NCBI RefSeq assembly: GCF_000148385.1
Contig: NC_014537.1
Coordinates: 1,140,001 to 1,172,000, forward strand
Origin: Vulcanisaeta distributa DSM 14429
GTDB taxonomy: Archaea > Thermoproteota > Thermoprotei > Thermoproteales > Thermocladiaceae
Direction: 5' to 3'
Length of the DNA stretch: 32,000 bases
Under the pieces are notes generated by a model. It was not told where the DNA came from. It ran no database searches and saw nothing but the letters and a program-made list of their open reading frames with translations. The first letter of the stretch is position 1. Every line of letters begins with the position of its first letter. This document shows, in pieces, positions 5,978-32,000 of this stretch. The position numbers and the translations under genes are program-made.

Positions 5978-6042
5978 TTCTTGAAATCTATGTGAATAAT
6001 GAATTTAGTTTTATTTAGGACTTAAAATTGGTAAGTCATTGT

Positions 6043-6660: not shown

Positions 6661-6781
6661 TTCTTTCTATTGGGGTAGTTCTATACTTAATACATAATGG
6701 TTTACACCGAGATATATATTGGATAATGCTTATTAATAATTGATATTTAGCAAATAAAACGTGGCAACTACTACACCTCAA

Positions 6782-7414
6782 ATGAGCAGGGGGGAGGGGG
6801 AGGTTGCCAGGCACTACGTAAATGCCATAGTTAAGCTTGTGATATATATAATCGTATACGTGGTGGTAGCCGCCATAGTTCACTGGATAATAACGTCCTT
6901 ATTACCGATGTTTGGCATAAATGTTAAGCCGTATGAGGGTTACGTAAATGTACTGCTTGCGCTTGCCTTTGGCTACCTAATCGTGTCAGCCTTTGCTGAC
7001 GTCATTTATTGGGCTATGAGGTTTAGGTATGACCACCCAACTGCTAGGGCTATGAGGAATGTATTTCTGCTAATAGGTATTGGCGCATTGGTTGCTGGCA
7101 TTGCGGGTGCTATTGGCGGTGGAGTTGCAGGCGTGGCTGTGGGCGGCTTTCTCGGCATTGTAATTGGTTTCGCAGTCCAACAGGTCCTTGGGCAAGCAGT
7201 GGCTGGCTTATTCCTGCTATTGGCTAGGCCATTTAAGATAAGTGATCACGTTAATTTACTTGGTGAGGATGGTATCGTTAATGACGTCGCAATATTATTC
7301 ACTGAGGTTATTAAGAGTGATGGTACTAAAGTCCTGATACCTAATAATTCAATAATTGGTAATAAGATATACCTACTGCCTAAGCAGCAGCCTCAGCAGC
7401 AACAGCAGAAGTAA
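6782..7414 (+). CDS. Small mechanosensitive-channel (MscS-like) membrane protein with a Gln-rich C-terminal tail
   Basis: It has three to four hydrophobic segments, a Gly-rich pore-like helix (GIGALVAGIAGAIGGGVAGVAVGGFLGIV) and FKISDHVNLLGEDGIVNDVAILFTEVIKSDGTKVLIPNNSII, which resembles the MscS beta domain. The alternative start is GTG 6761. ATG 6782 has AAATAAAA about 27 nt upstream. Confidence 0.55.
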   Translation: MSRGEGEVARHYVNAIVKLVIYIIVYVVVAAIVHWIITSLLPMFGINVKPYEGYVNVLLALAFGYLIVSAFADVIYWAMRFRYDHPTARAMRNVFLLIGIGALVAGIAGAIGGGVAGVAVGGFLGIVIGFAVQQVLGQAVAGLFLLLARPFKISDHVNLLGEDGIVNDVAILFTEVIKSDGTKVLIPNNSIIGNKIYLLPKQQPQQQQQK

Positions 7415-8691: not shown

Positions 8692-8701
8692 TGCGGTTCC
8701 T

Positions 8702-10633
8702 TTACATTCTCCTTAACCTGGGTATTCCAAGTATGTCCATAGCATTACCAAGCACTGTCCTCACGGCATTCACAAGGTTTATCCTAAACTCCCTAATACC
8801 AGGCTCGGCATTTAGCACAGGGTACTTTTCATAATAACTATTAAATACGAGGGACAGCTTATTCACATACTCAATTATGTTCTCAAGTCTTAACTCCTGA
8901 GCAGCCTTGGCAATCACTTCAGGATATTCGCCAAGTAATAATGTTAATTCCTTTTCCTCGCTGGCGATATTATTGGGTATTTGTGTAAGCTTAGGGACTT
9001 CGCCGGCCTTCTCAAGAATTCCGTTTGTCCTTACGTATGTGTATTGAACGAATGGCCCACTATTCTGCCTTAAATTCAGCACCTTATCCCATGAGAACGT
9101 CAATGGTTTATTTGGGCTCACAGAGAGGAATGAATACCTAATTGCACCAACGGCAACTGCCTCGGCGACTTTATCGGCCTCGTCAGGTGGGAATCTACCC
9201 TTCACAATCTCCATAACCCTATCCTTTGCCTCGTTAAGTAATTCATCAAGAGATACGTAAATTCCCTTCCTACCACTCATCTTCATTCCGGCTAGATTAA
9301 CCATCTCATAGGAATAATGAATCAATTTCCTGGCCAATTCGTGATACCCCATTGCATGTAGTGCTAACCTAAGTTGAGCCTGAGGATGGGCTTGCTCAGA
9401 GCCTATGACCCTTATTAGCTTATCGAACTTGAAGTTATCCCAGAACCATAAGGCGTAGGCAATATCCCTCGTTAAGTATAGGCTTGTTCCATCGCTCCTA
9501 AGTAGTGTTGCCTTCGGTATATACCTAGGTAGTTTAAGTTCATCCCAAAGATTAAGGTCCTGGGCATACTTATCGGCCCTAAATACCAATGCCCCATTAT
9601 CCCTCTCCATGTATTGCGGAGCCCTCCTAAGTAATTCATTAATCACCCTGGATACACCGCCATTATCCACGGCAACCTCACTCTCAAAATCCCACGAATC
9701 AAAGACAACACCAAGCCTATCCAGAGTTATCCTAAAGCCAGTAAGCACTACATCCACAGCCTCCCTAATGACCTTCCTAACGAATTCATCACCCTCCTCA
9801 TAAGCCCTCGACCACTGCTTAACCATTAATGGGAGATCCTCGAACTTACCCAACCCCTTAAGTAAAGCCTCAGTAAGTTCCTTATCCTTTTCTATGAAGT
9901 TGTTAATTACAGAAACCCACTCATCCCTCTCACCGATCAGCTTATTCGCATCATCATACTTACCCTCATTCTTAAGCTGTTCAATCTGTTTACTCAATCT
10001 CTTAATCTCGCTTACCGCATATGTCACTGAGTAAATGATGCCCATTACCTCGTCAGGCTTCCAACCACCATTAATCCTACTGAGTACTAAGTCCTTAGCC
10101 ACATAATAGCCAATACCAACATAGGGCATTTGATCACCACAATCATTAACGTAAAAATGAACCTTAACAGAAGCGCCACAAAACCTGAGCAACCTAGCCA
10201 ATGAATCGCCAAGTACGGCATTCCTGCCATGACCAATGTGCATGGGTTTTGCGGGATTTGCACTCGTATGCTCTATTATGTAACTACCCGTTGGGCACTT
10301 ATCGCTAAGTCCATATTTATCGCCTAAATTACTGATTGATAATAATACTATGTTTGCGTAATCATTTATATTAATATCAATGTTCAGATACCCATTAACT
10401 AATACGACCTTATTTATTAATTTTAATTGAGGTATTATTTTTTGATTTATTATTTCATCAATATTCCCATGCTCCCTTACAATACTATGCATTGGGATTG
10501 CTAGATAGCCATACTGTGGCGGTGCCCTTATCACCTCATTAACGTACTTGGTCACGTCAGTTCCAATCTCTGTGCTTAAAAGTTTTAGGAGCCTCTGGAC
10601 ATCCTCAATCACTTGATTATACGGATTGCTCAT
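8702..10633 (-). CDS. argS: Arginine--tRNA ligase
   Basis: 643 aa. It has the class I HIGH-type motif SANPAKPMHIGHGRN, an MSGRKG (KMSKS-like) motif, and an anticodon-binding C-terminus ending in ...RM, which is typical of ArgRS. Confidence 0.9.
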   Translation of the reverse strand: MSNPYNQVIEDVQRLLKLLSTEIGTDVTKYVNEVIRAPPQYGYLAIPMHSIVREHGNIDEIINQKIIPQLKLINKVVLVNGYLNIDININDYANIVLLSISNLGDKYGLSDKCPTGSYIIEHTSANPAKPMHIGHGRNAVLGDSLARLLRFCGASVKVHFYVNDCGDQMPYVGIGYYVAKDLVLSRINGGWKPDEVMGIIYSVTYAVSEIKRLSKQIEQLKNEGKYDDANKLIGERDEWVSVINNFIEKDKELTEALLKGLGKFEDLPLMVKQWSRAYEEGDEFVRKVIREAVDVVLTGFRITLDRLGVVFDSWDFESEVAVDNGGVSRVINELLRRAPQYMERDNGALVFRADKYAQDLNLWDELKLPRYIPKATLLRSDGTSLYLTRDIAYALWFWDNFKFDKLIRVIGSEQAHPQAQLRLALHAMGYHELARKLIHYSYEMVNLAGMKMSGRKGIYVSLDELLNEAKDRVMEIVKGRFPPDEADKVAEAVAVGAIRYSFLSVSPNKPLTFSWDKVLNLRQNSGPFVQYTYVRTNGILEKAGEVPKLTQIPNNIASEEKELTLLLGEYPEVIAKAAQELRLENIIEYVNKLSLVFNSYYEKYPVLNAEPGIREFRINLVNAVRTVLGNAMDILGIPRLRRM

Positions 10634-19270: not shown

Positions 19271-19313
19271 CGTGAGGAAAAGTAAATAAGTACTTAAATT
19301 AACGGTGAAGGCG

Positions 19314-19757
19314 ATGCCTGGTAAAAAATCACCGCTTGGTATGTTTGCCGCCAGGGGATTGAAGGAGAAGAGGAAGAAGTTTAGGTGGAGTGACACGTAT
19401 TATAAGAGGAGGATGCTCGGCATAGCTAAGAAGTTTGACCCACTTGAAGGAGCACCAATGGCTAGAGGAATAGTCCTTGAGAAGGTCGGTGTCGAGGCAA
19501 GGAAACCAAACGCAGCCGTGAGGAAGTGCGTCAGGGTCCAAATAACTAAGAATGGTAAGGTTGTCACAGCATTCGTGCCGTGGGACGGTGGCTTAAATAT
19601 AATAAATGAGCATGATGAGGTAATAATCGAGAGAATAGGCGGTCCTGAGGGTAGGGCTTACGGAGACCTACCCGGCGTTAGGTTCAGGGTCATAATGGTT
19701 AATGGCGTTAGCTTAAAGGCCATATTGCAGGGAAAGAAGCAGAAACCCGTTAGGTAA
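19314..19757 (+). CDS. rps12: 30S ribosomal protein S12 (uS12)
   Basis: It shows [14 protein letters not shown]...[13 protein letters not shown]...GDLPGVRF. The track start is GTG 19305. ATG 19314 lies 5 nt after GGTGA at 19304-19308. Confidence 0.93.
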
Positions 19758-19762
19758 TTTTT
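19758..19762 (+). terminator. T5 tract immediately after the rps12 stop codon (putative archaeal terminator)
   Basis: TTTTT follows the TAA at 19755-19757. Oligo-T tracts are the known archaeal intrinsic termination signal. The next gene is convergent. Confidence 0.3.
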
Positions 19763-19791
19763 AATTCAATTTAGGACTTTATAATCAATAA

Positions 19792-20334
19792 TTAGTCCTC
19801 AGATCCCTGGTTATCATCATTACCCTGATTATTAGATGCCGTGTAATTACCCTCATGTTCCTCCTCGTGTTCACCAACGGGCTTTATCGTTATTAATGGC
19901 TTATTAACGACATTAGGCGGTCCCTCTGGGTTGGGCTTAACCGTGTAATAGACAGTTATTGATACCGTGTAATTACCAGGTGTTAGGTAAACGGTGTATT
20001 CATCCCTGTGTAGGTTAAGTGTCACTGTCTGATTCCCAATAGTTATAACAACGGTGAAATTGCTAAATACGTCGTCTAAGCCCTCATGATGAAGCTTAAC
20101 CTTGAAGTATCCTGAGGAATTAACGTATAGGTACGCGGTAGCCTTAGCCGTGCCGCTCATTCCTGGTGTTAGATTGCCAAGGTTTATGTACGCAGAAACT
20201 GTACTATACATTGGGGGCGGCGGTAGGATTAAGTGATAGCTTAGGTATGCAAGTACGCCATTCATATTTGCCGCAACAACCATTCCACTTAGACCTGCTA
20301 GGAAAGCCAGCGCTATTAATAGCCAGCTCTTCAT
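19792..20334 (-). CDS. Hypothetical secreted protein, beta-rich, with multiple N-glycosylation sequons and an acidic His/Glu/Asp tail
   Basis: It has the signal peptide MKSWLLIALAFLAGLSGMVVAA. It has six N-x-S/T sequons (NLT, NSS, NFT, NQT, NYT, NYT), alternating hydrophobic beta-strand patterns, and the tail EHEEEHEGN...DDNQGSED. I recognise no family. Confidence 0.6.
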   Translation of the reverse strand: MKSWLLIALAFLAGLSGMVVAANMNGVLAYLSYHLILPPPPMYSTVSAYINLGNLTPGMSGTAKATAYLYVNSSGYFKVKLHHEGLDDVFSNFTVVITIGNQTVTLNLHRDEYTVYLTPGNYTVSITVYYTVKPNPEGPPNVVNKPLITIKPVGEHEEEHEGNYTASNNQGNDDNQGSED

Positions 20335-20413
20335 ATTAAAAAGAGGAATTGATCGCTAATTAATAAAAGTTGCGCAGCATAAGTATTTAAAGAGTAATCT
20401 CTAGGCATTAATT

Positions 20414-20467
20414 AAGTGATGTAAAGGTTTCCGGCCTGACGATTGATGACATCACCCCTTACTGACA
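20414..20467 (+). ncRNA. C/D box sRNA candidate 1 (2'-O-methylation guide)
   Basis: The layout is C box GUGAUGU at 20416-20422, a 13-nt spacer, D' CUGA at 20436-20439, a 3-4-nt linker, C' UGAUGA at 20444-20449, a 12-nt spacer, and D CUGA at 20462-20465. TATTTAAA at 20384-20391 would place a TSS about 2 nt before the C box. The candidate is intergenic and antisense to both flanking genes. Confidence 0.6.
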
Positions 20468-20475
20468 AAGCATTC

Positions 20476-21033
20476 TCAACCTGTTTTGTACTCTCTTAAT
20501 TCATCATTAAACACTCTATTAAATACATTGAATGCTTCATCACCATACAAGCAAATGATTATCCTCCTCACACTCTTAAGGCCTGGCGCCTCCCTCCTGA
20601 TTGCCCGTGCCATTATCCTCGCCGCATCCTCATACGGGCACCCAAATATACCAGTACTAATTGCCGGGAAGGCTATGCTAGTTAGTCCCAACTCCTCAGC
20701 CTTCCTAAGAGAGTTTGTAACTGCATCATCAAGCTTCTCAATAGGTTCAATGCCGCACCTAGGTCCGACGGCGTGAATCACGTACTTAGCCCTTAACTTA
20801 CCCGCACTGGTCACGGCAACACCACCCACAGGGACAGGACCATACTTCCTAACCCACTCACGGGATTCCTCCTGAATAACCCAACCACCCTTCCTAACAA
20901 TGGCACCGGCAACTCCACCACCATGCTCTAGGTACGAATTAGCGGCATTAACGATAGCGTCAGCCTCAACCTCGGTTATATCACCCTTAATAAGTTCCAC
21001 AGTGACACCATTAGGGAATTTAAAGCCCGGCAT
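20476..21033 (-). CDS. Macro domain protein (ADP-ribose / O-acetyl-ADP-ribose binding or hydrolysing, AF1521/MacroD-like)
   Basis: 185 aa. It has [29 protein letters not shown] and [15 protein letters not shown], the canonical macro-domain motifs. A TATA box (minus strand GTATTAAA, 21057-21064) lies about 27 nt upstream of the ATG. Confidence 0.88.
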
Positions 21034-21168
21034 AAGCTTAGAATTATCAATAACCCTTTAATACTTAATCAGTATGAAGGCATGAATATTATCATTATCT
21101 CGGTCCTGCTCACCCCTCTTTCAAAATGTTTATTATCAATGCCATGAAAGGCTTAATAACTAGGTAGA

Positions 21169-21185
21169 TACCCAGTAACTGGGTA
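21169..21185. promoter_or_regulatory. 17-bp perfect palindrome TACCCAGTaACTGGGTA flanked by AGGTAG direct repeats; candidate operator or 5' hairpin of the ATPase gene
   Basis: It has 8-bp arms around a single central base. AGGTAG occurs at 21162-21167 and at 21185-21190. It ends 8 nt before the GTG start at 21194 and lies downstream of TTAATAA at 21153-21159. Confidence 0.35.
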
Positions 21186-21193
21186 GGTAGCCA

Positions 21194-22273
21194 GTGCTGT
21201 TTGACCCTAAGCCTAAGGAGAGGAGGGAGGATTTATTCGATAGGGATGAGGAGTTGAGAAGGTTAAGGCTTGGTCTTAGTTATCCAGTCACGTTATTACT
21301 TGGGATTAGGAGGAGTGGTAAGTCGTCATTAATTAAGGTACTTATGAATGAGGAGAAGGACGTGATTTGGGTATACCTTGACCTGAGGAAGTATGAGGGC
21401 CATGCATACTTAACATATAGGCACCTACTGGGTGAGTTTGAGAGGGCTTTGAATAGCTGGCAGGAAAGCCTAAGGAGGCTACTGCAAGGTATTCGTGGTG
21501 TGTCTATATCGGGGCCTGGCTTTGAGGTTAGGCTTGGTTGGGGTAAGTCTAAGGTTGAGTTGGGTGATTTGTTTGATAGATTGTCTGATATTGGTGAGCG
21601 TGAGGGGCGTAAAGTGGTCATCGTGTTTGACGAGGCTCAGGAGTTGAGAAAGCTTAAAGGATTTAACATACTTTACCCACTAGCTTATGCCTATGATAAC
21701 CTTAGGCTCAACTTCGTATTCACCGGCTCACAGATCGGCATGGTTTATAGATTCCTGAGACTTAGGGACCCTGGCTCACCACTGTTTGGTAGGGCAATGT
21801 TCGAGGTTCGTATTAACCCATTCACTAGGGAACAAGCCGTTGAATTCCTAAGGGCTGGTTTTAGAGAGGTTAGTTTATCCGTCAGTGAGGGCATACTTGA
21901 AGACGCATATAACGAGTTAGGTGGCGTACCTGGTTGGCTTACTTACTACGGGCTCAATTACATGCAGCTTAATGATCATGGAGAGGCCATTAGGAGGACG
22001 CTTGAATATGCCGTGCAGCTTATTAGGCAGGAGTTTGAGAATTTTCTGAGGGGTAGGGAGGAGGCCAGGGAACGTTACTATGCAATAATGAGCCTATGTA
22101 GGTTTGGCTGTAGGTGGAGTGATGTTAAGCGCATGTTAATGGCTAAGGAGGGCTACGAAGTCGATGATAAGAAGGTGACGGAACTACTCCAGAACCTAAT
22201 GGATGCATCATTCTTGATTAAGGAAAATGACCTGTATAAACCGAGTGACCCATTAATAGCCAGGGCATTTTAA
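21194..22273 (+). CDS. Archaeal AAA+ ATPase (Arch_ATPase-type) with a C-terminal winged-helix domain
   Basis: 359 aa. It has FDRDEELRRL before the Walker A motif GIRRSGKSSL, the Walker B motif VVIVFDEAQEL, and a C-terminal wHTH-like segment (YAIMSLCRFGCRWSDVKRML...). The start codon is GTG. Confidence 0.8.
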   Translation: MLFDPKPKERREDLFDRDEELRRLRLGLSYPVTLLLGIRRSGKSSLIKVLMNEEKDVIWVYLDLRKYEGHAYLTYRHLLGEFERALNSWQESLRRLLQGIRGVSISGPGFEVRLGWGKSKVELGDLFDRLSDIGEREGRKVVIVFDEAQELRKLKGFNILYPLAYAYDNLRLNFVFTGSQIGMVYRFLRLRDPGSPLFGRAMFEVRINPFTREQAVEFLRAGFREVSLSVSEGILEDAYNELGGVPGWLTYYGLNYMQLNDHGEAIRRTLEYAVQLIRQEFENFLRGREEARERYYAIMSLCRFGCRWSDVKRMLMAKEGYEVDDKKVTELLQNLMDASFLIKENDLYKPSDPLIARAF

Positions 22274-22584
22274 ATAGCATGGTTCCTGAAGCTTAAGTAC
22301 AATTAGCACGTGACTTTACGTATTGATATTTAATACACTATAGATTTATAGAATTTACTCACCAAATTTGAATAATTCGACTTAACATGTCCATTAATAA
22401 CTGACTCAACTTCTGATACTTCAGACTAAGAATTAACCTTGCCTTGTAATATATTAAGAAACATGTTTAGTAAGTACCAATGATAGTAGGGGCGACGATT
22501 GGTATAATGATAATATATGAACATAGGTTAGACATAGTCTTGCTGATAACTAATAAGGTAGCGAAATACTAAGTATTAGCTATA

Positions 22585-23832
22585 TTATCCAAATAATGGC
22601 ACCTTAGTGCGCCTTGGCGGCTTAGGTACAGCTAACCACAGGGCTCCCGATATGAATGCCAGTATCAGCACAATTAGCAGTGCATGCTCCAGGGCACCCA
22701 CCTCGCCATAGATTGGTACGTAGTATTGCGCGAGCAACCCCGTTATTAATGAGCCGAGTACATTACCTCCTGTAACTGCACCGTTCCAAACTATTGATGT
22801 TGCCCAACTAACCTGTTCCCTCGGGAATAAATCACCAAGTACTGCCATAATTAGTGGGAAGTTGCTGAGCACGAAGAGTATTGCAAAGAAGGCAAAGACG
22901 AGGTTTCCAGTGTATATGAATGCTATGAATAGTATTGCAAAGGCAAATGTTGATATGGAGGCGATTAACCTCCTACCAACCTTATCACTTAACCAGCCAA
23001 GTATTGGTTGACCTATTATGGCTGAGGCAAGTAGTATTGATAGGATTTCCCCATAGCTTATACTGAGCTTTATGCCAAGTACCTTATTTATGTATATACC
23101 GAGGAATGTCTGTATACCCTGGCCTGCGGTGTTTCTCAATAATGTTATTACGAATAGTAGTATTATTAGCATTATAGATGCTCTAAGTGTCGTTGAACTG
23201 TTCGTTGGATCGTCCTTATTTCTCCTATACGCCTTAACATCGAATTTATAAATACCGTATAATAACACGGCGACGCCTACGATGAATGTCACAAAGGCTA
23301 ATATCCATAAATTAAAGACTGTGCTTATGGCACCCGCAAATACAAGGATTGAGGCAATAAGTGGATAGAGTGCTCTGCCCAAGCTTCCAAATGCGCCATT
23401 TATCCCAAGGGCTGAGCCGGCTGTTCCGCCGTATGTGGCCGACAGCAATGCACTACCTATTGGGTGGTAGTAAGCGGCGCCTACTCCTGCCAATACAACA
23501 CCTACGTATACTAGGTATAGGTTATGTGTTAAGAAGCCTATTGAGGCGAGGCCGATGGCGAATGCCCATAGGAACATGCCGAGTGCCATAGCCCTCATGT
23601 GACCGCCAAGCCATTTAATACTGAGTGGTACTAAAGGGCTCGCTATTGCTGATATTGCGGCGTAGAGTGCAGATAGTAATCCAATTATTGCGTAGTTAAC
23701 GCCCAATTGGTTTAGTACTGGTAGTATTATACCGGGTATTAACCACATGTTTCCATCATTAATGAAGTGACCAATTGATGTTAATCCAAGTATTGTTACC
23801 CTATCCTTGCCCTTTTCTCCCTGTATCATCAC
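22585..23832 (-). CDS. MFS transporter
   Basis: 415 aa with about 12 hydrophobic segments, two six-helix halves separated by a charged loop (KAYRRNKDDPTN), and a WLSDKVGRR motif typical of MFS loop 2-3/8-9. Confidence 0.8.
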   Translation of the reverse strand: MMIQGEKGKDRVTILGLTSIGHFINDGNMWLIPGIILPVLNQLGVNYAIIGLLSALYAAISAIASPLVPLSIKWLGGHMRAMALGMFLWAFAIGLASIGFLTHNLYLVYVGVVLAGVGAAYYHPIGSALLSATYGGTAGSALGINGAFGSLGRALYPLIASILVFAGAISTVFNLWILAFVTFIVGVAVLLYGIYKFDVKAYRRNKDDPTNSSTTLRASIMLIILLFVITLLRNTAGQGIQTFLGIYINKVLGIKLSISYGEILSILLASAIIGQPILGWLSDKVGRRLIASISTFAFAILFIAFIYTGNLVFAFFAILFVLSNFPLIMAVLGDLFPREQVSWATSIVWNGAVTGGNVLGSLITGLLAQYYVPIYGEVGALEHALLIVLILAFISGALWLAVPKPPRRTKVPLFG

Positions 23833-23834
23833 CG

Positions 23835-23849
23835 TTAGGGCTACCCTAA
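23835..23849. promoter_or_regulatory. Palindrome TTAGGGctaCCCTAA between the TATA box and start codon of the MFS gene; candidate operator
   Basis: It has 6-bp perfect arms and a 3-nt spacer. It lies between the minus-strand TATA TTTAAAAA (23853-23860) and the start codons GTG 23832 / ATG 23829. Confidence 0.3.
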
Positions 23850-23950
23850 TGCTTTTTAAACCAATCGCGCTTAGTAAGAATTCATGAAATGGTTAATGAA
23901 CCATTGACAGGCGCGAAATACACATAAATTAGGCAGAGCGTTGATGCGCG

Positions 23951-24283
23951 ATGGCGAAGGTAGTCTTCCTAATAATGAGCGATGACGTTAAGATGGATCT
24001 GGCGTTAACAATGGCCGCAAATACTGTCAGTACAAATAGGTATGAGGACTTTAAGGTCATCTTCTGGGGACCGGCCCAGGAAAGACTATTGAGGCTTGAG
24101 GGTCCTGCCAAGGATAATTTCGAGAAACTGCTAAAGGCAGGAGCAATTGATAGTGCATGCATTAATTACGCAAGGAATAAGGGAATAGACCAGCAGTTGA
24201 CCAAGATAGGTATTAAGCTACACCCTGCCGGTGATAGGGTTGCATACTACATAAATAATGGGTATCAGGTATTGGTGTTTTAA
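23951..24283 (+). CDS. DsrE/DsrF-like small protein (putative sulfur-relay/DsrE-fold family)
   Basis: 110 aa. It has an N-terminal beta strand KVVFLIMSDD, a helix, an FKVIFWGPAQERL segment, and a terminal G-Y-Q-V-L-V-F strand. This resembles small DsrE-fold proteins. The call rests on pattern memory only. Confidence 0.45.
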   Translation: MAKVVFLIMSDDVKMDLALTMAANTVSTNRYEDFKVIFWGPAQERLLRLEGPAKDNFEKLLKAGAIDSACINYARNKGIDQQLTKIGIKLHPAGDRVAYYINNGYQVLVF

Positions 24284-24438
24284 ATTTAAGAGAACTGAAA
24301 ATATACCAAGACCTCCTCAAACTTTCCTTAACCTCTCAACACCCTCTAGGCTTATAACACCAAGCCTATTGCCGTTCTGGTCATAAGTATACACTTTATT
24401 ATCCTCCTCATCACGCACAAGCCTATGCATATCGTATA

Positions 24439-26016
24439 CTATACTTGGCATGAATTTCGTATTTCCTTAACTGTCTCTTCTGTGAACAAATTTATGTATT
24501 TCATTAAAAGCTTTGATAATCTTTTCCTAATTTTTTCATTCTTAGCCTTTATAATCTTTTTACAAAGTACCTTTATTATTTGTATCATAACATCTCCATC
24601 ATTGTTATTTATTATCGTTTTAATAGGTATTTCAATAACTATAAAGTCGCGATATGTATGGGTATAAATAAGAGCATCATTGCTGTATCTTTCTTTCAAT
24701 TTTTGAGTAATAGTATTCATCATATCCGATGATTTAGTTCTACGCATTAATATGACTGTACGCCAGTTCGGAGTATGAACAGTGAATCTTTCACCAGCTA
24801 CAATAACCTGCGCTTCACCCCTTCTCCTTAGCTCTTTCTTGGCAATTTCATTAATTATTACCCACTTCTCCTCACCTACTGCATTTAATAAATCATGTAA
24901 CTCTTGAAGCGTATTGACAATCAACCTAGCTAATTCTACCGCATGACTACTATAATATGATATTCGTGTTATTTTACCGTGTGATGGTCGCCATCTAATT
25001 CCAAGCTTTTCAATTATTGGAATCCAAATACTTATATCCTTAGATGCAAGTTGAATCCTTAACTTTTTAATATCAACATTACCATCACCAACAATCGCGG
25101 TATATAAAGCCGGTACAGCTAAATTTATACCTGCTTTACTAAGAAGCGTAGCAATAGAATTCTTAAGTGAGTTATGAGATGATACTAAAAACCATCTTAT
25201 TGCTACACTTTTCTTATTTACATCAATTCCATTTATATGTACATATGTCTTACCAGGATATAACAGAAGCCAAAGAATCATTTGACGTATTTTGGTAGTT
25301 TCCATGGCGGCATAACGATATTTATACATCAATTCATCTGATGATGCAAACCCTATTTTCAATCCTTCTATTATTTCCTTTAATAGTTCTTTAGTCTTTT
25401 CATCCTTTTGTTCCAGAATTTTACCAATAACATCTGGTACCATCACCTTAATACCTCTAAAGTTCTCAAAATATAAAACAACTGTTATATCCTTAGACTT
25501 GCTTAATGTAGGTTCATTTACTTTTAATGTTATATGTTTGTTCTTTACAACAATATATAAGGTACCATTACTGGATTCGCGTACAATAATTTTTATGCAG
25601 CCATTTTCTATCTTACTTATTAGTTCCCTAATTTCATTACTAATATTAACATATTTCTTTTCAAACCTCTTAATATACTTAATAAGAGAATTAATTGTTT
25701 TCGCAAATTCGTAAATAATACCATTGTACTTCTCACTCAATTCTTCAACATTTCTTCTTATTTCCAGGAGCTCTCTTCTATATTTCTCCAGCCATTCAGA
25801 TGTATCTATATGCCAATAGGTTATCCTATTGAGAGCTTCAATCAGTAGATCAACGGCATGATTAATTGTCTTCTGGTTTTTAATTTCATTAATACATCGA
25901 TAATGATGACCAACCTTCATACCCTTACAAAATTTATTTTTCTTAATTAGCTCTACATTTACTCTATTTTCTATTTCTATAGTCGTGGTATGTTTATTTT
26001 GAGCGATGCACATCAC
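24439..26016 (-). CDS. Orphan 525-aa protein in a low-GC block; the central region resembles a degenerate double-LAGLIDADG (homing-endonuclease-like) core with long N- and C-terminal extensions
   Basis: This is a long uninterrupted ORF in a very AT-rich stretch. Residues 302-370 read PALYTAIVGDGNVDIKKLRIQLASKDISIWIPIIEKLGIR...ISYYSSHAVELARLIVNTL, which is LAGLIDADG-motif-like. Residues 214-292 read IIEGLKIGFASSDELMYKYRY...VAIRWFLVSSHNSLKNSIATLL, a degenerate first motif. The N-terminus has C30-x6-HH-x2-C41 and a heptad-rich segment. The likely start is ATG 26013 or GTG 26016. Confidence 0.6.
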   Translation of the reverse strand: MMCIAQNKHTTTIEIENRVNVELIKKNKFCKGMKVGHHYRCINEIKNQKTINHAVDLLIEALNRITYWHIDTSEWLEKYRRELLEIRRNVEELSEKYNGIIYEFAKTINSLIKYIKRFEKKYVNISNEIRELISKIENGCIKIIVRESSNGTLYIVVKNKHITLKVNEPTLSKSKDITVVLYFENFRGIKVMVPDVIGKILEQKDEKTKELLKEIIEGLKIGFASSDELMYKYRYAAMETTKIRQMILWLLLYPGKTYVHINGIDVNKKSVAIRWFLVSSHNSLKNSIATLLSKAGINLAVPALYTAIVGDGNVDIKKLRIQLASKDISIWIPIIEKLGIRWRPSHGKITRISYYSSHAVELARLIVNTLQELHDLLNAVGEEKWVIINEIAKKELRRRGEAQVIVAGERFTVHTPNWRTVILMRRTKSSDMMNTITQKLKERYSNDALIYTHTYRDFIVIEIPIKTIINNNDGDVMIQIIKVLCKKIIKAKNEKIRKRLSKLLMKYINLFTEETVKEIRNSCQV

Positions 26017-26040
26017 TAATGTTATTTTAAAATAATTAAT
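24440..26040. mobile_element. Compositionally atypical (low-GC) insertion coextensive with one ORF; putative horizontally acquired or free-standing homing-endonuclease-type element
   Basis: Sampled 60-nt lines inside give about 22-37% G+C (25501-25560 and 24901-24960). A flanking gene line gives about 52% (26881-26940). Codon usage shifts from host AAG/AGG to AAA/AGA/CGT. I found no flanking direct repeats. Confidence 0.4.
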
Positions 26041-26186
26041 AAGGTACTAACGTAATATTACCTTCATGGCATTTCATGCAGGTATTGAGTCTTTAAGGGG
26101 TTATTACTGGACCTGATTAACACGTGAAATATTGCACTCATGTAACGTCATAATTAATATCAAATCTTTACCATTTAATAACGGCA

Positions 26187-27101
26187 TTACCACGTAATGA
26201 GACCCTCGAGGTTGTGTAGCTCGATTGGCGTTAGGTATTGAATTCTTAATGCAGCAATCCTATTGCCTAAATCGCAGGAATTCATGGGACTCAGACCATG
26301 CATGATGCCAGCCATGTAGGCAGCATCAAATGTATCACCAGCGCCTATTGTTGTCACTGCATTACTCACGTTATAAGGTTGGCATTGATGAATTACTCCA
26401 TTATGTACCAGGGCGGCGCCCTTACTGCCTAGCTTCACTACGGCAATAACGTCAGTACCACGTGTGGTGTTGGCTAAACCATTTATATCACCAAATAACC
26501 TCCTCATCTCCTTCTCATTCATAAAGACAGTACTTACTGACTTAATGAGGTTAATCATGAGGTCTATGTTATTAATGGAGGGTCCCGTATCGAGGAATAT
26601 AGGGACTGAGTACTTACGGGCAATTCTAATTACCTCTGCGAATACTTTGATAATGTCTCTCGTAAATGAGGCATAGAAGCCATTGATAAATACAGCCCTC
26701 GAATTCCTGATAATATTCTCATTAATATCATCTATCGTTAGTTCCTTACCAACGCCTAGGTAACCCATGAATGCGTGGTCATCAGCGCCAATTATATTAT
26801 TGGATATTGTTACGAAACCACGCACCCTTTTTATAAATCCCGTGTGCACGCCGACGTCATTAAGGTACTTAATGAGTATGTCGGAGAATGGGTCACCACC
26901 AACCCTATCAATGACTGCGACCTTAAGGCCTAGTTTACGGGCTACTATAGCTGTTGTGCATGCACCGCCGGGTGATAGGGCAATTATATCGGATACGGCA
27001 ACGTCACCAGCCTTAATAGGTAATTCCCTAACCCTATAATAAATATCTAAGACGCAGTCAGAGATTATCATTAGGTCAAATTTATCCTCATTATTACTCA
27101 T
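26187..27101 (-). CDS. PfkB-family carbohydrate kinase (ribokinase / 2-keto-3-deoxygluconate-kinase-like)
   Basis: It has a GGA/GG motif region (SPGGACTTA) and the C-terminal PfkB signature TIGAGDTFDAAYMAG. The track start is 27146. ATG 27101 is preferred, and it overlaps the upstream MFS stop by 8 nt. Confidence 0.85.
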   Translation of the reverse strand: MSNNEDKFDLMIISDCVLDIYYRVRELPIKAGDVAVSDIIALSPGGACTTAIVARKLGLKVAVIDRVGGDPFSDILIKYLNDVGVHTGFIKRVRGFVTISNNIIGADDHAFMGYLGVGKELTIDDINENIIRNSRAVFINGFYASFTRDIIKVFAEVIRIARKYSVPIFLDTGPSINNIDLMINLIKSVSTVFMNEKEMRRLFGDINGLANTTRGTDVIAVVKLGSKGAALVHNGVIHQCQPYNVSNAVTTIGAGDTFDAAYMAGIMHGLSPMNSCDLGNRIAALRIQYLTPIELHNLEGLITW

Positions 27102-28335
27102 GTTCCCACGCACTAATACTAATTCCCTTACCAGTCTCAGCACCAATTAAGTACCAGGTAAGGGATGCCGCAAAACCAACACTGAATATTGCGGTCGCCA
27201 ATACTAAGTATGAGCTCACTGGCAGGTAAGATGATAGGAATATCACAGGTATTGAACCACCCAATGACATAACCCTAACAGCCGCGGTGTAGGAGCCCCT
27301 GCGCCTCGTAACCCAATACTCAGATTTTAGTGTGTCCTCGGTTAGGAAGTATGTATTTACGAGTATTGAAAATAGTATGAAGAGCGCCCAGAAGATGTAT
27401 TGATCGTTCACGAGACTGCTAATTAGTGATAGTATGAGTAATGAGGTAATTAGGGATCCTAACGATGAAGTAAGTAACAGTAACTTTCTACTAACCTTAT
27501 CGGCAAACATGCTCACTGGTATTCCGGAGATGAAGGACGCCACCGAGAAGGTGAAAATAAGCCAATTAGTAAGGTTAGGGAAGTAGTAGGGCCCGAAGGT
27601 TAATACCATTAATGTGAAGCCCGCTGTATATGACCAGCCAATTAAGCCACCAATCACTATCCTAACTGATAATGGTGGTAACATTACTGATGTACGATTA
27701 CCTTCCTCCTTAATTAAATCAGGCCACTGACCCTCGGGGATTACCTTCCTAGCCCTGAGCCAGTATGGTGATTCAGGAATTAATGACCTAAGTAGGTAAA
27801 GCACTGGGATTATTATGAGTATTGTCAGCCCAAGTGCGAGTTTTTGAAGCACTACCGATGTTATGTTTGCCAGGGCTAGGGCCGTTGCTAAGGCACCGCC
27901 GAAATTCGTAAAGTTAAGTATTAAGTAAACAGCACGGCTCCTGATGCTACTTGGGAAGTATTCATGGGATGAGATCATAACCGTATTATACTCACCTCCA
28001 ACGGCGAGCATTAGTATGGCTATGGAAAATAGCAATAATGCGTAGTTAATACTAAGTATTAGGCTCACGGAACCCACTACGTACATAATCAACGATAAGT
28101 AAAGGCTCCTCTTCCTACCAATGGCATCTGAGATAGGCCCCATTACGGCATCGCCGATTAGTAGCCATAGAGGCGGCCAAATAGATAGTAGGGCAATTAA
28201 GGCTCTTGGTACCGAGACCCAGCCAGAGGCTATGTAGGCTATGGAATATATGTAGGCCTCAATCGTGGTACTTATGGAAAACACCGTGAAAATTAGTGCA
28301 TGTATCCTGCTCCATTTTTCGTACCTAACCATCAT
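27094..28335 (-). CDS. MFS transporter (sugar/solute porter-like), first gene of a two-gene operon with the PfkB kinase
   Basis: 413 aa with about 12 TM segments and the MFS motif GPISDAIGRKRSLYLS in loop 2-3. Its stop overlaps the kinase start. Confidence 0.8.
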   Translation of the reverse strand: MMVRYEKWSRIHALIFTVFSISTTIEAYIYSIAYIASGWVSVPRALIALLSIWPPLWLLIGDAVMGPISDAIGRKRSLYLSLIMYVVGSVSLILSINYALLLFSIAILMLAVGGEYNTVMISSHEYFPSSIRSRAVYLILNFTNFGGALATALALANITSVVLQKLALGLTILIIIPVLYLLRSLIPESPYWLRARKVIPEGQWPDLIKEEGNRTSVMLPPLSVRIVIGGLIGWSYTAGFTLMVLTFGPYYFPNLTNWLIFTFSVASFISGIPVSMFADKVSRKLLLLTSSLGSLITSLLILSLISSLVNDQYIFWALFILFSILVNTYFLTEDTLKSEYWVTRRRGSYTAAVRVMSLGGSIPVIFLSSYLPVSSYLVLATAIFSVGFAASLTWYLIGAETGKGISISAWEHE

Positions 28336-28336
28336 G

Positions 28337-28354
28337 ATAGGATAATTATCCTAT
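28337..28354. promoter_or_regulatory. 18-bp perfect palindrome ATAGGATAATTATCCTAT; candidate operator of the MFS-PfkB operon
   Basis: All nine base pairs were verified position by position. It starts 2 nt upstream of the ATG at 28335 and abuts the TATA box at 28354-28361. Confidence 0.45.
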
Positions 28355-28361
28355 TTATAAA
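28354..28361 (-). promoter_or_regulatory. TATA box (TTTATAAA) of the MFS-PfkB operon
   Basis: It is centred about 23 nt upstream of the ATG at 28335. This is consistent with a leaderless or near-leaderless transcript. Confidence 0.45.
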
Positions 28362-28442
28362 TAATTCCTAAATGAACTTATGGATGAATTAAGGTATTAT
28401 TTGCGTAAGAAATATTAATTCGTTCATAATCATTAATAAATA

Positions 28443-29198
28443 ATGGATGTTTCGTTGATTTTGGGTGTTGTTGGGCCTATTGTTACCATAGTTACGATTT
28501 TGGGTACGACGCTTTATTGGCTTGGTGGTAAGTTTAAGGAGATTGAAATGAGATTTAGGGAGATAGACATGAGGTTTAGGGAGATTAATGAGCGTTTCGG
28601 GCAAATCGATGAGAGATTCAAACAAATCGACAAGAGATTTGAAGAAATTGACGAGAGATTCGAAAAAATCGATGAGAGATTCGACAAGCTAGAAAAGGAC
28701 TTAAAGAGCTACGTAGACACCAAATTTAGCGAACTCAGGGGTTATGTTGACTCGAGAATTAATGAATTGAGGAGCTATGTCGATTTAAAATTTAATGAAT
28801 TTAGGAGTTACGTGGATGGGAGGTTTAATAGGCTTGTCAATATTATCACTGGTCAGAATGAGTTCATTACCGAGTTCCTTGGTTTTAGGGGTGTTCTTGA
28901 TAGTAAGGATGTGAGTTTCGTTAAGGCTACATTACGTAGCATGGTCACTGCAGCCACTAACCCGCTTACGGAGGCTGAGAAAAGGAGGTTGCTTGAGCTT
29001 ATTGATAAGGATGAATTGACGCTTGAGGAGGCTGATGAGTTATTGCAATTGGCCAGAAAGTTCGTTATGGAGTACGGTGATAGGGGGCCTGATGTTTGGA
29101 AGATGCTGTGGTATGCGTCCGTAATGCATGGTATAACGCTTAGGAAGCTTGAGGAGAAGAGGTCGAAGGAGGGTCAAGGAGGGAGTTCCAGTGGATAG
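28443..29198 (+). CDS. Membrane-anchored coiled-coil repeat protein (8 heptads then 4 hendecads) with a helical C-terminal domain; function unknown
   Basis: It has an N-terminal TM helix (SLILGVVGPIVTIVTILGTTLYWL). Residues 29-84 are eight x-R/K-F-x-x-I-D heptads. Residues 89-132 are four S-Y-V-D-x-K/R-F/I-x-E-L/F-R 11-mers. A ~110-aa Leu/Glu-rich domain and a Gly/Ser tail follow. TATA-like AATATTAA lies at 28411-28418. Confidence 0.7.
   Translation: MDVSLILGVVGPIVTIVTILGTTLYWLGGKFKEIEMRFREIDMRFREINERFGQIDERFKQIDKRFEEIDERFEKIDERFDKLEKDLKSYVDTKFSELRGYVDSRINELRSYVDLKFNEFRSYVDGRFNRLVNIITGQNEFITEFLGFRGVLDSKDVSFVKATLRSMVTAATNPLTEAEKRRLLELIDKDELTLEEADELLQLARKFVMEYGDRGPDVWKMLWYASVMHGITLRKLEEKRSKEGQGGSSSG
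28527..28694 (+). repeat. Eight tandem 21-bp in-frame repeats (heptad units)
   Basis: Example units are caaatcgatgagagattcaaa, caaatcgacaagagatttgaa, gaaattgacgagagattcgaa and aaaatcgatgagagattcgac. The 21-nt periodicity is visible directly in the DNA. Confidence 0.85.
28707..28838 (+). repeat. Four tandem 33-bp in-frame repeats (hendecad units)
   Basis: They encode SYVDTKFSELR, GYVDSRINELR, SYVDLKFNEFR and SYVDGRFNRLV. Confidence 0.8.
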
Positions 29199-29230: not shown

Positions 29231-30283
29231 GTGAAGCTTAACTTTGGTAAGGATTGGGTCGATTTCGTAGTTGAGGGTGAGGATGACCTATATGTCGTTT
29301 ATTTGCTAATTGATTCGGGCGACGTTATTTATGGTTGGACTGTCAGGGAGTTCAGGGGTAGGGAGGGTTCCAGGGGTGAGAGGGTTAAGATTTATGTGGG
29401 CCTTAGGGTTGAGGGTCTTGAGTATCATGCGTTTAGGGGTTCACTTAGGGTTAGGGGCGTGTTGATAGAGGTTCCTGAGTGGTTTGAGGGTGCCAAGGGT
29501 AGTCACCACACGATGGAGTTGTCATACGGGCTTGAGTATAGGTTGGTTAAGTCGGGCGGTATTGATAGGGAGTTCATTAGTAAGGTTTTGGAGATGTTCA
29601 GTGGTGCATCAATAAGTGTGTTATTGGTTTCGGTCTCAATGGAGGAGGTCGCCGTTGCCCACATTCGTAGGTTTGGTAGAGAGTTGCTTGGGACGATACC
29701 GATACAGGCCGGCGGTAAGGAGAGTGAGGACTCACTTGATAGGTTTAGGAGGTCCCTTAGGAATGTGCTTACTCAGGTTAGGCAGTGGGTTCAGGTTAGG
29801 AGGCCTACGCATATGGTTGTTGTTGGGAATCACATGACGTTGTCCATGGCTAGGGACGTGATTAATGAGGAACTGGGTAAGTTGGGTATACCAATTATTT
29901 ATCATGAGCAGGGCGAGGGTGGTTTAGCTGGTGTTTATGAGTTTGAGAGGGTTGGCGGTGATGTTCTTAGGAAGTTGAATATAAGCCTTGGACGGGAATA
30001 TGTCGATGAGGTATTCAATAGGTTGGGTGCGGGTAGTGGATTAGTGGCTATTGGTATTGATGAGGTTAAAAAAGCACTTGAGTTTGGTGCGGTAGAGACG
30101 TTGATAGTGCTTGACGAGACCTATAAGGAGAGGGGTGGTGAAATGAGGGAATTAGTTGGTATGGTGTTGAGGACGAGAGCTAACCTTGTGATAATACCGT
30201 CAAGTACCGAGGGTGGTGAGAAATTGAGGGGCATTGGTGGTGTTGCCGCGTTGCTAAGGTTTCCTATTTCTTCTCAGCCTTAG
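29231..30283 (+). CDS. pelA: Pelota (Dom34 homolog), mRNA surveillance / ribosome rescue factor
   Basis: 350 aa. The N-terminal Sm-like domain reads DDLYVVYLLIDSGDVIYGWTVREF...ERVKIYVGLRVEGLEYHAFRGSLRVRG. The central and C-terminal domains are eRF1-like (ALEFGAVETLIVLDE). The start codon is GTG. Confidence 0.9.
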   Translation: MKLNFGKDWVDFVVEGEDDLYVVYLLIDSGDVIYGWTVREFRGREGSRGERVKIYVGLRVEGLEYHAFRGSLRVRGVLIEVPEWFEGAKGSHHTMELSYGLEYRLVKSGGIDREFISKVLEMFSGASISVLLVSVSMEEVAVAHIRRFGRELLGTIPIQAGGKESEDSLDRFRRSLRNVLTQVRQWVQVRRPTHMVVVGNHMTLSMARDVINEELGKLGIPIIYHEQGEGGLAGVYEFERVGGDVLRKLNISLGREYVDEVFNRLGAGSGLVAIGIDEVKKALEFGAVETLIVLDETYKERGGEMRELVGMVLRTRANLVIIPSSTEGGEKLRGIGGVAALLRFPISSQP

Positions 30284-30665
30284 TTATCTCGCTCTTTGGC
30301 GACCCCTGGTTTATTATCTGCGTTATCTTATCATAAGCCTCCAGGATAAGTACCATTGACTTAACGAGTTCATTTATCCTATCAATGTCCTTAGTCTCTT
30401 TAAGCTCGTTATTAATCATTACAAGTCTTTCATATAGCGTGTCTCTAATGTCCATGAGGCCGTACCTAATCATGACCTCCTTCTCCTCGGCATCGGACCT
30501 AACGATGACCACGGGCCTATCACAATTCGCACAGTAGTACTCACCGGTTTTCAACCTTAGTAGCGGAGTACCGCAGACTGGGCATGTGTAGCTGGTCAGT
30601 GTTGCCCCGGCCCTAATTAATTGCGCCATTTTCTTGGCAACCAAGTCCCTACTACTGACACTCAC
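30264..30665 (-). CDS. UPF0148 / autoantigen-p27-like zinc-ribbon protein
   Basis: 133 aa. LIRAGATLTSYTCPVCGTPLLRLKTGEYYCANCDRPV is a CxxC...CxxC zinc ribbon, followed by a helical tail. The start is GTG 30665, with minus-strand TTTATAA (30690-30696) about 28 nt upstream. Confidence 0.75.
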   Translation of the reverse strand: MSVSSRDLVAKKMAQLIRAGATLTSYTCPVCGTPLLRLKTGEYYCANCDRPVVIVRSDAEEKEVMIRYGLMDIRDTLYERLVMINNELKETKDIDRINELVKSMVLILEAYDKITQIINQGSPKSEITKAEKK

Positions 30666-30751
30666 GTTGCTAAACCTAATGCAACCTGCTTATAAACCCA
30701 ACGAAGCAATGCCCAAGTTAAGTATTTTAAGGCCTTGATTAAACTCTTCGT

Positions 30752-30806
30752 TAAGTGATGAGTGACATGCCATGTGACTGGTGATCGATCCTGGGGTACC
30801 TGATCC
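30752..30806 (+). ncRNA. C/D box sRNA candidate 2 (2'-O-methylation guide)
   Basis: The layout is C box GUGAUGA at 30755-30761 (perfect), a 12-nt spacer, D' GUGA at 30774-30777, a 3-nt linker, C' GUGAUCG at 30781-30787 (degenerate), a 12-nt spacer, and D CUGA at 30800-30803 (perfect). TATTTTAA at 30723-30730 would place a TSS 1-3 nt before the C box. The candidate is intergenic and antisense to both flanking genes. Confidence 0.6.
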
Positions 30807-30814
30807 ATTGCCAA

Positions 30815-32000
30815 TTATTTCAATTGACCATAAGTCCTCCCAAGCCAGTATCCCCTTGCTATGGCTTTTCCTATTGATGGTTGGTCTCTGTAAACACTGT
30901 GAATCACCACATCGGCCTTTACGGACTCTGGCGACTTTACGAACTCAACACCCAACTCCCTATACTTCTCCATCAATAGGTATGCCCTAGCCCTATCGAG
31001 ACCCCTAAACACATTATCCGTAACATAAACCTCATTACGCCTAACCCACTCAAATACGTAATCTTGATATGCATAGAGGTTGGAATCAAGGAGTATCCTC
31101 AAACCCCTGTAATCCTTAAACTCGGGTTGGCGTTCCTTAGGCACGGCATAAATAACATTACCTCCATCATCCTTAAACTCTGTGTTAAGATAAACCTTAA
31201 CGCCTAACCCCTTCAGCTCCCTCTCGTAATAATCCACAAGCCTCATGAATTCAGCCCTCTTATACGGATCCCTGATCTCATTAAGTTGTCCACCAAGCTT
31301 ATCACCCTTTTCATAAAGTTTCACATCAAAACCCCGTAAAGCCAATATACGTGCCGCCTCCATACCCATTAACCCACCACCAACGACAACGACTTCGCCG
31401 AACCCCTTAGGCGGTGTAGGAAGCAGTTCCCAACCAAGTTCTGGATTAACATCACACCTAACCTCCCTAGTGGCTAGTAACCTACATGATTGATTACACC
31501 TAATGCACGGCCTAATCGGCATGTTAAGCCTAACCTTAATCGGCCAATCAGGGTCAGCGAGTAATTGCCTGCCAATGACAACGGCATCCGCGACCTCAAG
31601 GACCTTCACGGCATCCTCTGGCGTAGAGATAGAGCCTACCAGGAATAGTGGTAATTTAGTCGTTGATCTAACAACCTTAGCCTCATCAATGAAGCTCGGT
31701 CTTTTATAGTAAAAGGGCATTGAGCTTCCCAATGGTCCGTCCCTACCAGCCGATAGATGAACGTAATCAAGTAATCCCTCAACCCTCTTAATAATTTTGG
31801 CAACCATCTCTGGTGTCAAGCCCTCGTTGTCGAACTCGGTAACTGAAATCCTCAGGCCAATGGGTATGGACACCACACTCCTAACCTCTTTAAGAAGCTC
31901 CTCAAGGAATATAACGCCATCCCTATACCTATCACTCCTCCTATTTACGGCCGGCGATAGAAATTGAGCTATTAAATATCCGTGCGCTCCATGAAGCTCA
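30815..32000 (-). CDS. NADH:flavin oxidoreductase of the Old Yellow Enzyme / 2,4-dienoyl-CoA reductase family (5'-truncated by the window edge)
   Basis: The frame stays open upstream of the track's GTG at 31876. Positions 31877-31999 translate to [25 protein letters not shown], the OYE TIM-barrel signature. Downstream there is a Cys cluster (CIRCNQSC...C) and a Rossmann motif ([14 protein letters not shown]). Confidence 0.85.

Follow-up and report, generated by a model that had tools for sequence, protein, structure and literature searches.

In the Crenarchaeota, LAGLIDADG enzymes have been described from rRNA introns and from inteins. Free-standing homing endonuclease genes (HEGs), which spread by the process called 'intronless homing', include the seg and mob genes of phage T4 and the gene of yeast HO (F-SceII), a LAGLIDADG enzyme that carries added domains. 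The T4 enzymes are of the GIY-YIG or HNH type, and HO is intein-derived and keeps Hint-like parts together with a zinc finger. Here we analysed a 32,000-nucleotide (nt) stretch of the genome of Vulcanisaeta distributa DSM 14429 (assembly GCF_000148385.1, contig NC_014537.1, positions 1,140,001 to 1,172,000; hereafter the window, with positions counted from its first letter). A 525-amino-acid (aa) open reading frame (ORF) on its minus strand, at 24439..26016, forms a low-GC island and, by family homology, codes for a LAGLIDADG family protein. We propose, with a probability of about 0.72, that this island is a free-standing HEG cassette consisting of a short promoter-like leader and one ORF.

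The closest structural counterparts are the I-DmoI-type enzymes, which have a length of ∼170–200 aa and whose genes reside in rRNA introns (PMC2602781, PMC4496867). Like the monomeric double-motif enzymes I-DmoI (from the Desulfurococcus mobilis 23S rRNA intron) and I-Tsp061I and I-Vdi141I (from rRNA introns of the Thermoproteales), the window protein is predicted to have two pseudo-symmetric domains, in each of which the LAGLIDADG helix ends in an acid. The I-DmoI group was its best structural match (template-modelling score TMt of 0.5–0.55), the structure 2dch was its best sequence-profile match, and the hosts of these enzymes are likewise crenarchaeal. Unlike them, the window protein is 525 aa long, with ∼205-aa N-terminal and ∼125-aa C-terminal domains of no known family, and shares only 12–15% identity with the group; its gene is free-standing, multi-copy and located in the remnant of a protein-coding gene.

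With the free-standing HEGs, the element shares a stand-alone gene having its own putative expression signals, presence/absence polymorphism and co-converted flanks. It differs from the T4 enzymes in being of the LAGLIDADG type, and it resembles HO in combining a LAGLIDADG core with extra domains, whereas the Hint similarity of HO was not found. Unlike the free-standing HEGs that lie between genes, it sits inside a host gene, part of which has been deleted. In the intein enzymes PI-PfuI, PI-SceI and TliVMA, beta-rich domains likewise accompany the LAGLIDADG core. These enzymes ranked first in Foldseek by E-value and aligned over the greatest length (∼390–400 columns), at a root-mean-square deviation of 22–24 Å, only the core being superposed. 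In contrast to them, the window protein lacks splicing blocks, is not fused in frame to a host protein and does not match the Intein_splicing or Hint models of Pfam.

The 525-aa ORF was present in the window exactly as the original prediction, made from the sequence alone, had described it. It starts with a GTG at 26016 or, alternatively, with an ATG at 26013, and stops with a TAG at 24441–24439. We favour the start at 26016 because the V. souniana ortholog has an ATG at the position of the window GTG. The G+C content (GC) of the ORF is 0.309 and its GC at third codon positions (GC3) is 0.253, as compared with GC3 values of 0.42–0.55 (mean 0.482, standard deviation 0.039) for 15 other long ORFs of the window, which gives a z-score of −5.9. 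In 400-nt segments, GC was 0.29–0.35 within the ORF versus about 0.39–0.47 in the flanks, and the value for the whole window was ∼0.44. The abrupt drop in GC claimed earlier is therefore real and sharply bounded, but the flank figure of 52% that accompanied it was unrepresentative, 41–45% being the representative range. It was also correct that the drop coincides with the ORF. Compared with the empty-site genomes described below, the island-specific DNA (∼24435–26049) exceeds the ORF by only 33 nt on its upstream side and 4 nt on its downstream side. The reported change in codon choice was also borne out: AAA accounts for 48% of the Lys codons in the ORF versus 14% elsewhere, and among the Arg codons AGA accounts for 42% versus 15% and AGG for 26% versus 78%. 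Similarly, GAA makes up 76% of the Glu codons in the ORF and 21% elsewhere.

We modelled the protein with AlphaFold2 (AF2). Using a family alignment of 21 sequences, which are 21–35% identical to the window protein, we obtained a model with a mean predicted local distance difference test score (pLDDT) of 87.8 and a predicted template-modelling score (pTM) of 0.75; the prediction from the single sequence had a pLDDT of 36 and was unusable. The model has two alpha-beta-beta-alpha-beta-beta-alpha domains that open with helices 206–226 and 297–311, and these helices end at D227 and D311, respectively. Domain 1 covers residues 206–295 (25132..25401, minus strand; helix 'LKIGFASS'), and the D227 codon is at nt 25338–25336. 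Domain 2 covers residues 297–400 (24817..25128, minus strand; helix 'LYTAIVGDG'), and the D311 codon is at nt 25086–25084. Both domains were delimited from the AF2 model, the Foldseek matches and the alignments, a profile alignment in the case of domain 2. D227 and D311 were invariant in 21/21 aligned members, as were Q245 in domain 1, G312 adjoining D311, and G400. The family consensus of the first motif is 'LxxGxxxTDG' and that of the second is 'AxLGDG'. The residues quoted in the original prediction (C30, H37, H38, C41 and D311 in 'AIVGDG') were right, except that the first motif begins at 215 and not at 214.

When the predicted model was compared with the PDB by Foldseek, all the matches listed were LAGLIDADG enzymes, inteins or WhiA, and 22 matches overall had E ≤ 1e-3. 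The I-DmoI match had E-values of 5e-4 to 1e-3 and a TMt of 0.48–0.55 over ∼190 columns; further matches were PI-PfuI, the TliVMA intein, I-Tsp061I, I-SceI and the N-terminal domain of WhiA. Against BFVD, the matches were LAGLIDADG endonucleases and intein-containing proteins. When the family profile was compared with PDB sequences, I-Tsp061I (2dch) had an E-value of 1e-3, with its 'GFIDGDG' motif in the alignment, and the chimera of I-DmoI and I-CreI (1mow) had one of 0.028. Among the 21 members compared with Pfam, only P0083 reached the cutoffs, scoring 27.9 bits for LAGLIDADG_3 (cutoff 22.5) and 23.2 for LAGLIDADG_WhiA (cutoff 23.2); P0040 and P0055 had sub-threshold matches, the latter to LAGLIDADG_2. 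On the predicted model, the ORF product has a double-LAGLIDADG fold, and the original description of a double core resembling that of I-DmoI holds.

The protein is not the orphan that it had been taken for. An exhaustive HMMER search gave 91 cluster representatives at E < 1e-3, 20 of them at E < 1e-30, and many of the 91 are full-length (∼480–570 aa) with 28–37% identity to the window protein. Relatives beyond the V. souniana ortholog were found only by this exhaustive search. Word-indexed homolog searches, with the protein or with the family alignment, had the 97% identical V. souniana ortholog as their sole match, and single-protein searches of Pfam, NCBIfam and PDB sequences returned nothing significant. 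The named members are all 'hypothetical proteins' of Vulcanisaeta, coming from V. distributa DSM 14429, JCM 14467, JCM 16161, V. souniana and several metagenome-assembled genomes (MAGs); the exception is one partial match from an Infirmifilum MAG. There are at least two copies in V. distributa, at least two in JCM 16161 and at least three in one MAG, two of these being within 6.5 kb. Scans of metagenome and viral contigs for the family gave nothing new, tblastn searches of phages and plasmids gave no match and revealed no virus or plasmid link, and PADLOC and PHROGs returned nothing meaningful for the window protein. Many of the family-bearing metagenome contigs are only 1.8–2.4 kb long, a length that would fit assembly breaks at polymorphic insertions and is only suggestive. 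From these searches, the family is apparently restricted to Vulcanisaeta, and it was previously unannotated and without a Pfam model. In the searchable literature, intron-encoded LAGLIDADG enzymes of the Thermoproteales are described and this Vulcanisaeta family is not (PMC2602781, PMC4496867).

Members of the family occupy unrelated loci. P0002 (locus L003, 2827–6087) lies antisense between Fer4 and CCG-domain genes, which themselves appear to form one glycolate-oxidase-like operon. Another member (L011) directly follows a rhomboid gene. At a third locus (L014, in the Vulcanisaeta MAG GCA_049966235.1), a member adjoins a 5'-truncated enolase-superfamily gene and a 124-aa chimeric ORF. The truncated gene (6727–7047) covers MR_MLE_C positions 126–218 only. 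In the chimeric ORF (4268–4642), residues 81–121 are a fragment of exonuclease III (Xth; E = 2e-11), and no assignment was obtained for its N-terminal part. Such scraps suggest that the cassette may have moved ectopically, carrying pieces of a former host gene. Composition was examined for seven members, and all of them deviate from their hosts: five have low GC (0.31–0.36 versus 0.43–0.47) and two have high GC (0.49–0.50 versus 0.43). The two L014 paralogs at 5001–6476 and 7–1479, 3.5 kb apart, form this high-GC subfamily (GC3 0.62–0.64). A 90%-identity cluster mate comes from an Infirmifilum MAG, which hints at a possible transfer between genera.

In V. souniana, a family gene is located at the same place as in the window. 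Through orthologs of the adjacent PfkB gene, we reached two genomes in which this site is empty, Vulcanisaeta sp. JCM 16161 (locus L008) and GCA_001316125.1 (locus L009, in BBCS01000001, with the intact gene described next at ∼8650–9050), the background of the latter being ∼99% identical to the window. Genome contigs scanned with the PfkB neighbour yielded nothing but an unrelated Flavobacterium locus. Both empty-site genomes have an intact gene for a 75–76-aa zf-CDGSH protein between PfkB and a 110-aa gene, and the intact protein of GCA_001316125.1 matches Pfam PF09360 (zf-CDGSH). From base-level alignments to these genomes, we observed that the island-specific DNA of ∼1.6 kb (24435..26049, minus strand) replaces ∼92 nt of the zf-CDGSH gene, in sense orientation. 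The 5' remnant of that gene (26050..26067, minus strand) consists of the start codon and five further codons (ATG AAG GTA ATA TTA CGT), followed by the TAG that opens the cassette motif; the upstream region of the gene has also been retained. The 3' remnant (24317..24434, minus strand) corresponds to codons ∼39–76 and reads '..HRLVRDEEDNKVYTYDQNGNRLGVISLEGVERLRKV' up to its stop. The Fe–S ligand motif of zf-CDGSH, CxCx8PxCSGxH, is deleted at the filled site. This disrupted gene around the island had been missed in the original prediction. The 110-aa gene adjoining the site (23951–24283, plus strand) is conserved in all four genomes and has no Pfam match.

The upstream end of the cassette is a 33-nt segment, TAGTACCTTATTAATTATTTTAAAATAACATTA (26017..26049, minus strand), which contains a motif conserved in the family. 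The island opens with TAGTACCTTATTAATTATTTT, and the conserved motif, TAGTnC[CT]TTATTA[AG][CT]TA, is at 26049–26032 on the minus strand. Four family members, whose proteins are only 31–36% identical to the window protein, have this motif at a distance of 33–46 nt before the start. A search of both strands of 125 kb recovered its strict form at those four family sites only. The motif begins exactly where the homology to zf-CDGSH stops. Judged from its sequence (TAGTnCCTTATTAATTA), it may represent a promoter with a B recognition element (BRE) and a TATA box travelling with the ORF, and its spacing would fit a leaderless or near-leaderless mRNA. No convincing terminal inverted repeats or target-site duplications were present at the island borders. 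Integration linked to a tRNA gene was rejected, because the window has no tRNA genes; the search of Rfam also gave no matches.

We mapped the relationship of the window to GCA_001316125.1 and V. souniana by sliding identity in 200-nt bins and by a map of informative sites. Regions 19400–24000 and 30600–32000 are 99–100% identical to GCA_001316125.1 in nearly every bin, and 70–90% identical to V. souniana. From ∼24244 to ∼28400, the window is 95–100% identical to V. souniana, with alleles that are nearly all souniana-type, and only 80–94% identical to GCA_001316125.1. The segment 28400–30600 is patchy with respect to both relatives. The informative sites gave the same picture: the alleles are of the empty type as far as ∼24230, switch to the souniana type at 24244, become patchy beyond ∼28400 and return to the empty type after ∼30600. 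The imported (co-converted) tract (24240..28400) contains the island, the zf-CDGSH remnants, PfkB (26187–27146) and a major facilitator superfamily (MFS) transporter gene (27094–28335). Since it is 7–12% divergent from the empty-site strain, this tract is not native to the window lineage, which was the recipient. One junction of the tract is ∼200 nt from the cassette; this left junction (∼24230–24244) falls inside the 3' end of the 110-aa gene. The window ORF and the V. souniana copy differ at 30 sites, with a ratio of nonsynonymous to synonymous substitution rates (dN/dS) of 0.44, and the ORF is intact in both carriers. Hence, the recent foreign origin suggested earlier from composition was upheld by the empty site in a ∼99% identical strain and by the location of the gene within an imported souniana-like tract. 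A tract of this kind is what a free-standing HEG would be expected to leave behind after intronless homing with co-conversion of its flanks.

If the island is a free-standing HEG cassette, the 525-aa protein would be a monomeric double-motif LAGLIDADG enzyme. In such an enzyme, helices 206–226 and 297–311 would pack together, D227 and D311 would form the metal-binding catalytic pair, and the two alpha-beta-beta-alpha-beta-beta-alpha domains would make a DNA-binding saddle. Recognition of DNA is probably extended or stabilised by the N- and C-terminal domains that are particular to the family. We infer that the protein is an active nuclease and that its target lies within the intact zf-CDGSH region. 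Replacement of ∼92 nt of the zf-CDGSH gene by the cassette presumably destroyed the enzyme's own target, and the loss of this segment in the filled allele is consistent with target disruption. An empty allele that comes together with cassette-bearing DNA would be expected to be cut by the enzyme, and repair by homologous recombination would copy the cassette together with flanking donor sequence. It is likely, on this model, that cutting by the enzyme and not ordinary recombination drove the import.

Several observations weigh against this proposal. The window protein itself did not match any LAGLIDADG model of Pfam, and its first motif reads SDE instead of TDG, with Gly replaced by Glu. The island destroyed the host gene with a deletion and is not a clean insertion in a recognisable target site. 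The tract is very asymmetric, reaching ∼0.2 kb beyond the island in one direction but 2.3 kb or more in the other, and the sugar kinase and transporter genes that it contains could be selected cargo. In addition, the dN/dS of 0.44 rests on just 30 substitutions, and the transfer pattern comes from one empty/filled locus pair.

The leading alternative, although we consider it unlikely, is that a decaying or inactive LAGLIDADG gene was imported as a passenger by ordinary homologous recombination between Vulcanisaeta lineages, for example in an import of the PfkB and MFS sugar-utilisation genes, the endonuclease being uninvolved. That the tract extends for 2.3–4.5 kb over PfkB and MFS and for only ∼0.2 kb on the other side would be explained in this way. 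The segment 28400–30600 is also mosaic, indicating that recombination is common in this region, and there are other indels, namely an S12 intein in the same strain pair and an ATPase gene relative to V. souniana. However, the cassette and the nearer end of the tract are no more than ∼200 nt apart. An inactive passenger is also difficult to reconcile with an ORF that is intact in both carriers, with catalytic residues that are conserved throughout the family at 21–35% identity, and with a family that is multi-copy, compositionally foreign and present at unrelated loci.

Less likely still is an asymmetric nickase, or a protein that only binds DNA, with one half of the active site dead. This inference was drawn in the original prediction, where the first motif was thought to have lost its acid. 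The SDE of motif 1 against the consensus TDG, and the scores of the window protein below the Pfam LAGLIDADG thresholds, would speak for it. We observed, on the contrary, that D227 is invariant and that the hhalign profile comparison of domain 1 with domain 2 places it in register with D311; only the next residue, Gly, has been replaced by Glu, which is a normal variant found in 9/21 members. In the model, helix 206–226 ends at D227 just as helix 297–311 ends at D311. Because the first motif keeps its invariant acid, and D311 is kept as well, the nickase inference is without basis.

We regard as very improbable a domesticated DNA-binding protein of the LAGLIDADG fold, such as a WhiA-like regulator or a chromatin protein, having a host function. 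WhiA, a bacterial transcription factor derived from LAGLIDADG enzymes, also has the double-domain fold embedded in a larger protein. Its N-terminal domain was matched in Foldseek, one family member reached the LAGLIDADG_WhiA cutoff of Pfam, and the large extra domains of the window protein could be regulatory. WhiA, however, lacks the catalytic acids, has a C-terminal helix-turn-helix (HTH) domain and is a conserved single-copy host gene, whereas the window family is patchy and mobile with both acids invariant. No HTH domain was detected in Pfam scans of the window protein and of the other members. A gene with a host function would also not be expected to be missing at this site both in the ∼99% identical strain and in JCM 16161, to disrupt a host gene, to vary in copy number and to be of foreign composition.

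A remnant of an intein or of a bulge-helix-bulge (BHB) intron in zf-CDGSH can practically be dismissed: the orientation is that of zf-CDGSH, the ORF start shares the reading frame of the zf-CDGSH ATG, and the top Foldseek matches include inteins with long alignments, but a TAG separates the zf-CDGSH remnant from the ORF, the 3' junction is out of frame, splicing could not restore a gene from which ∼92 nt including the Fe–S ligands are gone, and other members lie between genes or antisense. For the intein, hhalign against the Vulcanisaeta S12 intein aligned only the LAGLIDADG motif and no Hint blocks, in line with the absence of Hint and Intein_splicing matches in Pfam. For the BHB intron, the best pairing of the junctions was reached by 237/300 shuffles, that is, at the level of chance. 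The gene is free-standing, as originally proposed, and in neither an intron nor an intein.

The regions on both sides of the core, long N- and C-terminal extensions as originally described, have an architecture without a match among described families: neither extension matched any family of Pfam, NCBIfam, PADLOC or PHROGs, and the N-terminal one had no match in PDB either. The N-terminal extension (residues 1–205; 25402..26016, minus strand) was delimited from the AF2 model and from Cys conservation. In the model, it consists of a beta-hairpin at 28–44 with the C30/C41 pair, three long helices at 48–137 and a five-stranded beta domain, 'D0', at 142–193. The Cys/His cluster noted earlier in this region stands in part, as the C30/C41 pair is partly conserved in the 21-member alignment but H37 and H38 are not. 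The C-terminal extension (residues 401–525; 24442..24816, minus strand; AF2 model) includes most of a module 'D3' (about 380–470), in which a helix, three strands, a helix, two strands and a helix follow each other and which contains the invariant G400. A helical tail with the conserved Cys of 'VLC' and a near-terminal Cys, C523, follows D3. The LAGLIDADG_3 match of P0083 and the LAGLIDADG_2 match of P0055 map to window residues 417–471, within D3. A profile comparison of D0 with D3 gave a weak similarity, with G136 aligned to G400 (P = 0.03), and a D3 sub-profile searched against PDB sequences gave only noise and no LAGLIDADG structure. We put forward as a hypothesis, and not as a result, that D3 may be a third, non-catalytic and degenerate LAGLIDADG-like module, and that D0 is possibly a fourth. 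In P0083 (594 aa), the most divergent member, the D3 module is present as a tandem duplicate, at residues ∼385–470 and ∼495–575.

A wider reading, which we offer tentatively and would not ourselves favour, is that the family constitutes a distinct archaeal mobile element. It would consist of a ∼1.6-kb cassette of promoter and ORF, coding for an enlarged enzyme of up to four LAGLIDADG-like modules (the catalytic pair D1–D2 between the degenerate D0 and D3). Such an element might invade protein-coding genes as well as ectopic sites, dragging scraps of host genes along, and would be more an engine of transposition or ectopic invasion than a single-site homing enzyme.

We also observed other variable features in this part of the genome. 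The segment 28400–30600, beyond the imported tract, is a fine patchwork of empty- and souniana-type alleles, diverged from both relatives (74–97% identity per 200-nt bin). It holds an ORF at 28443–29198 (251 aa, with tandem 'ERFxxIDxRF'-like heptad repeats) and a pelota-like ORF at 29231–30283. The patchwork may have arisen either from a third donor or from patchy mismatch repair at the end of the imported tract. The gene of ribosomal protein S12 (19305–19757) is intein-free in the window (150 aa), and a ∼1.5-kb intein is present in GCA_001316125.1 (L009, 13836–15376) and in JCM 16161 (L008, 6841–8826), with a breakpoint at ∼19524–19531 of the window. The product of the intein form is 661 aa long, matches Pfam Intein_splicing and contains the LAGLIDADG motif 'LFGDGS'. 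The strain pair thus differs by a second presence/absence polymorphism of the homing type, the element being here on the other side, in the strain without the cassette. Finally, the region 21034–22575 carries a gene for a 359-aa archaeal ATPase (ORF 21194–22273), which is also present in JCM 16161, where the ortholog matches Pfam ATPase_2/AAA_16, and in GCA_001316125.1. V. souniana lacks this gene and has only ∼155 bp between the same flanks.

The analysis brings to light an unannotated family of large free-standing LAGLIDADG enzymes, all labelled 'hypothetical protein' until now, for which annotation is now possible. The window, the empty-site sister strain and V. souniana together document, in three genomes, a single recent transfer whose junctions have been mapped, and the intact zf-CDGSH region offers a concrete substrate for homing studies in hyperthermophilic archaea. 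If the proposed function is true, these enzymes would provide scaffolds for thermostable meganucleases, with additional modules for DNA binding and possibly longer targets. The mosaic is also direct evidence that homologous recombination exchanges tracts of kilobase size between Vulcanisaeta species that are ∼15–20% divergent. What we see here appears to be a little-known family of archaeal genes in the course of spreading from one Vulcanisaeta lineage to another.

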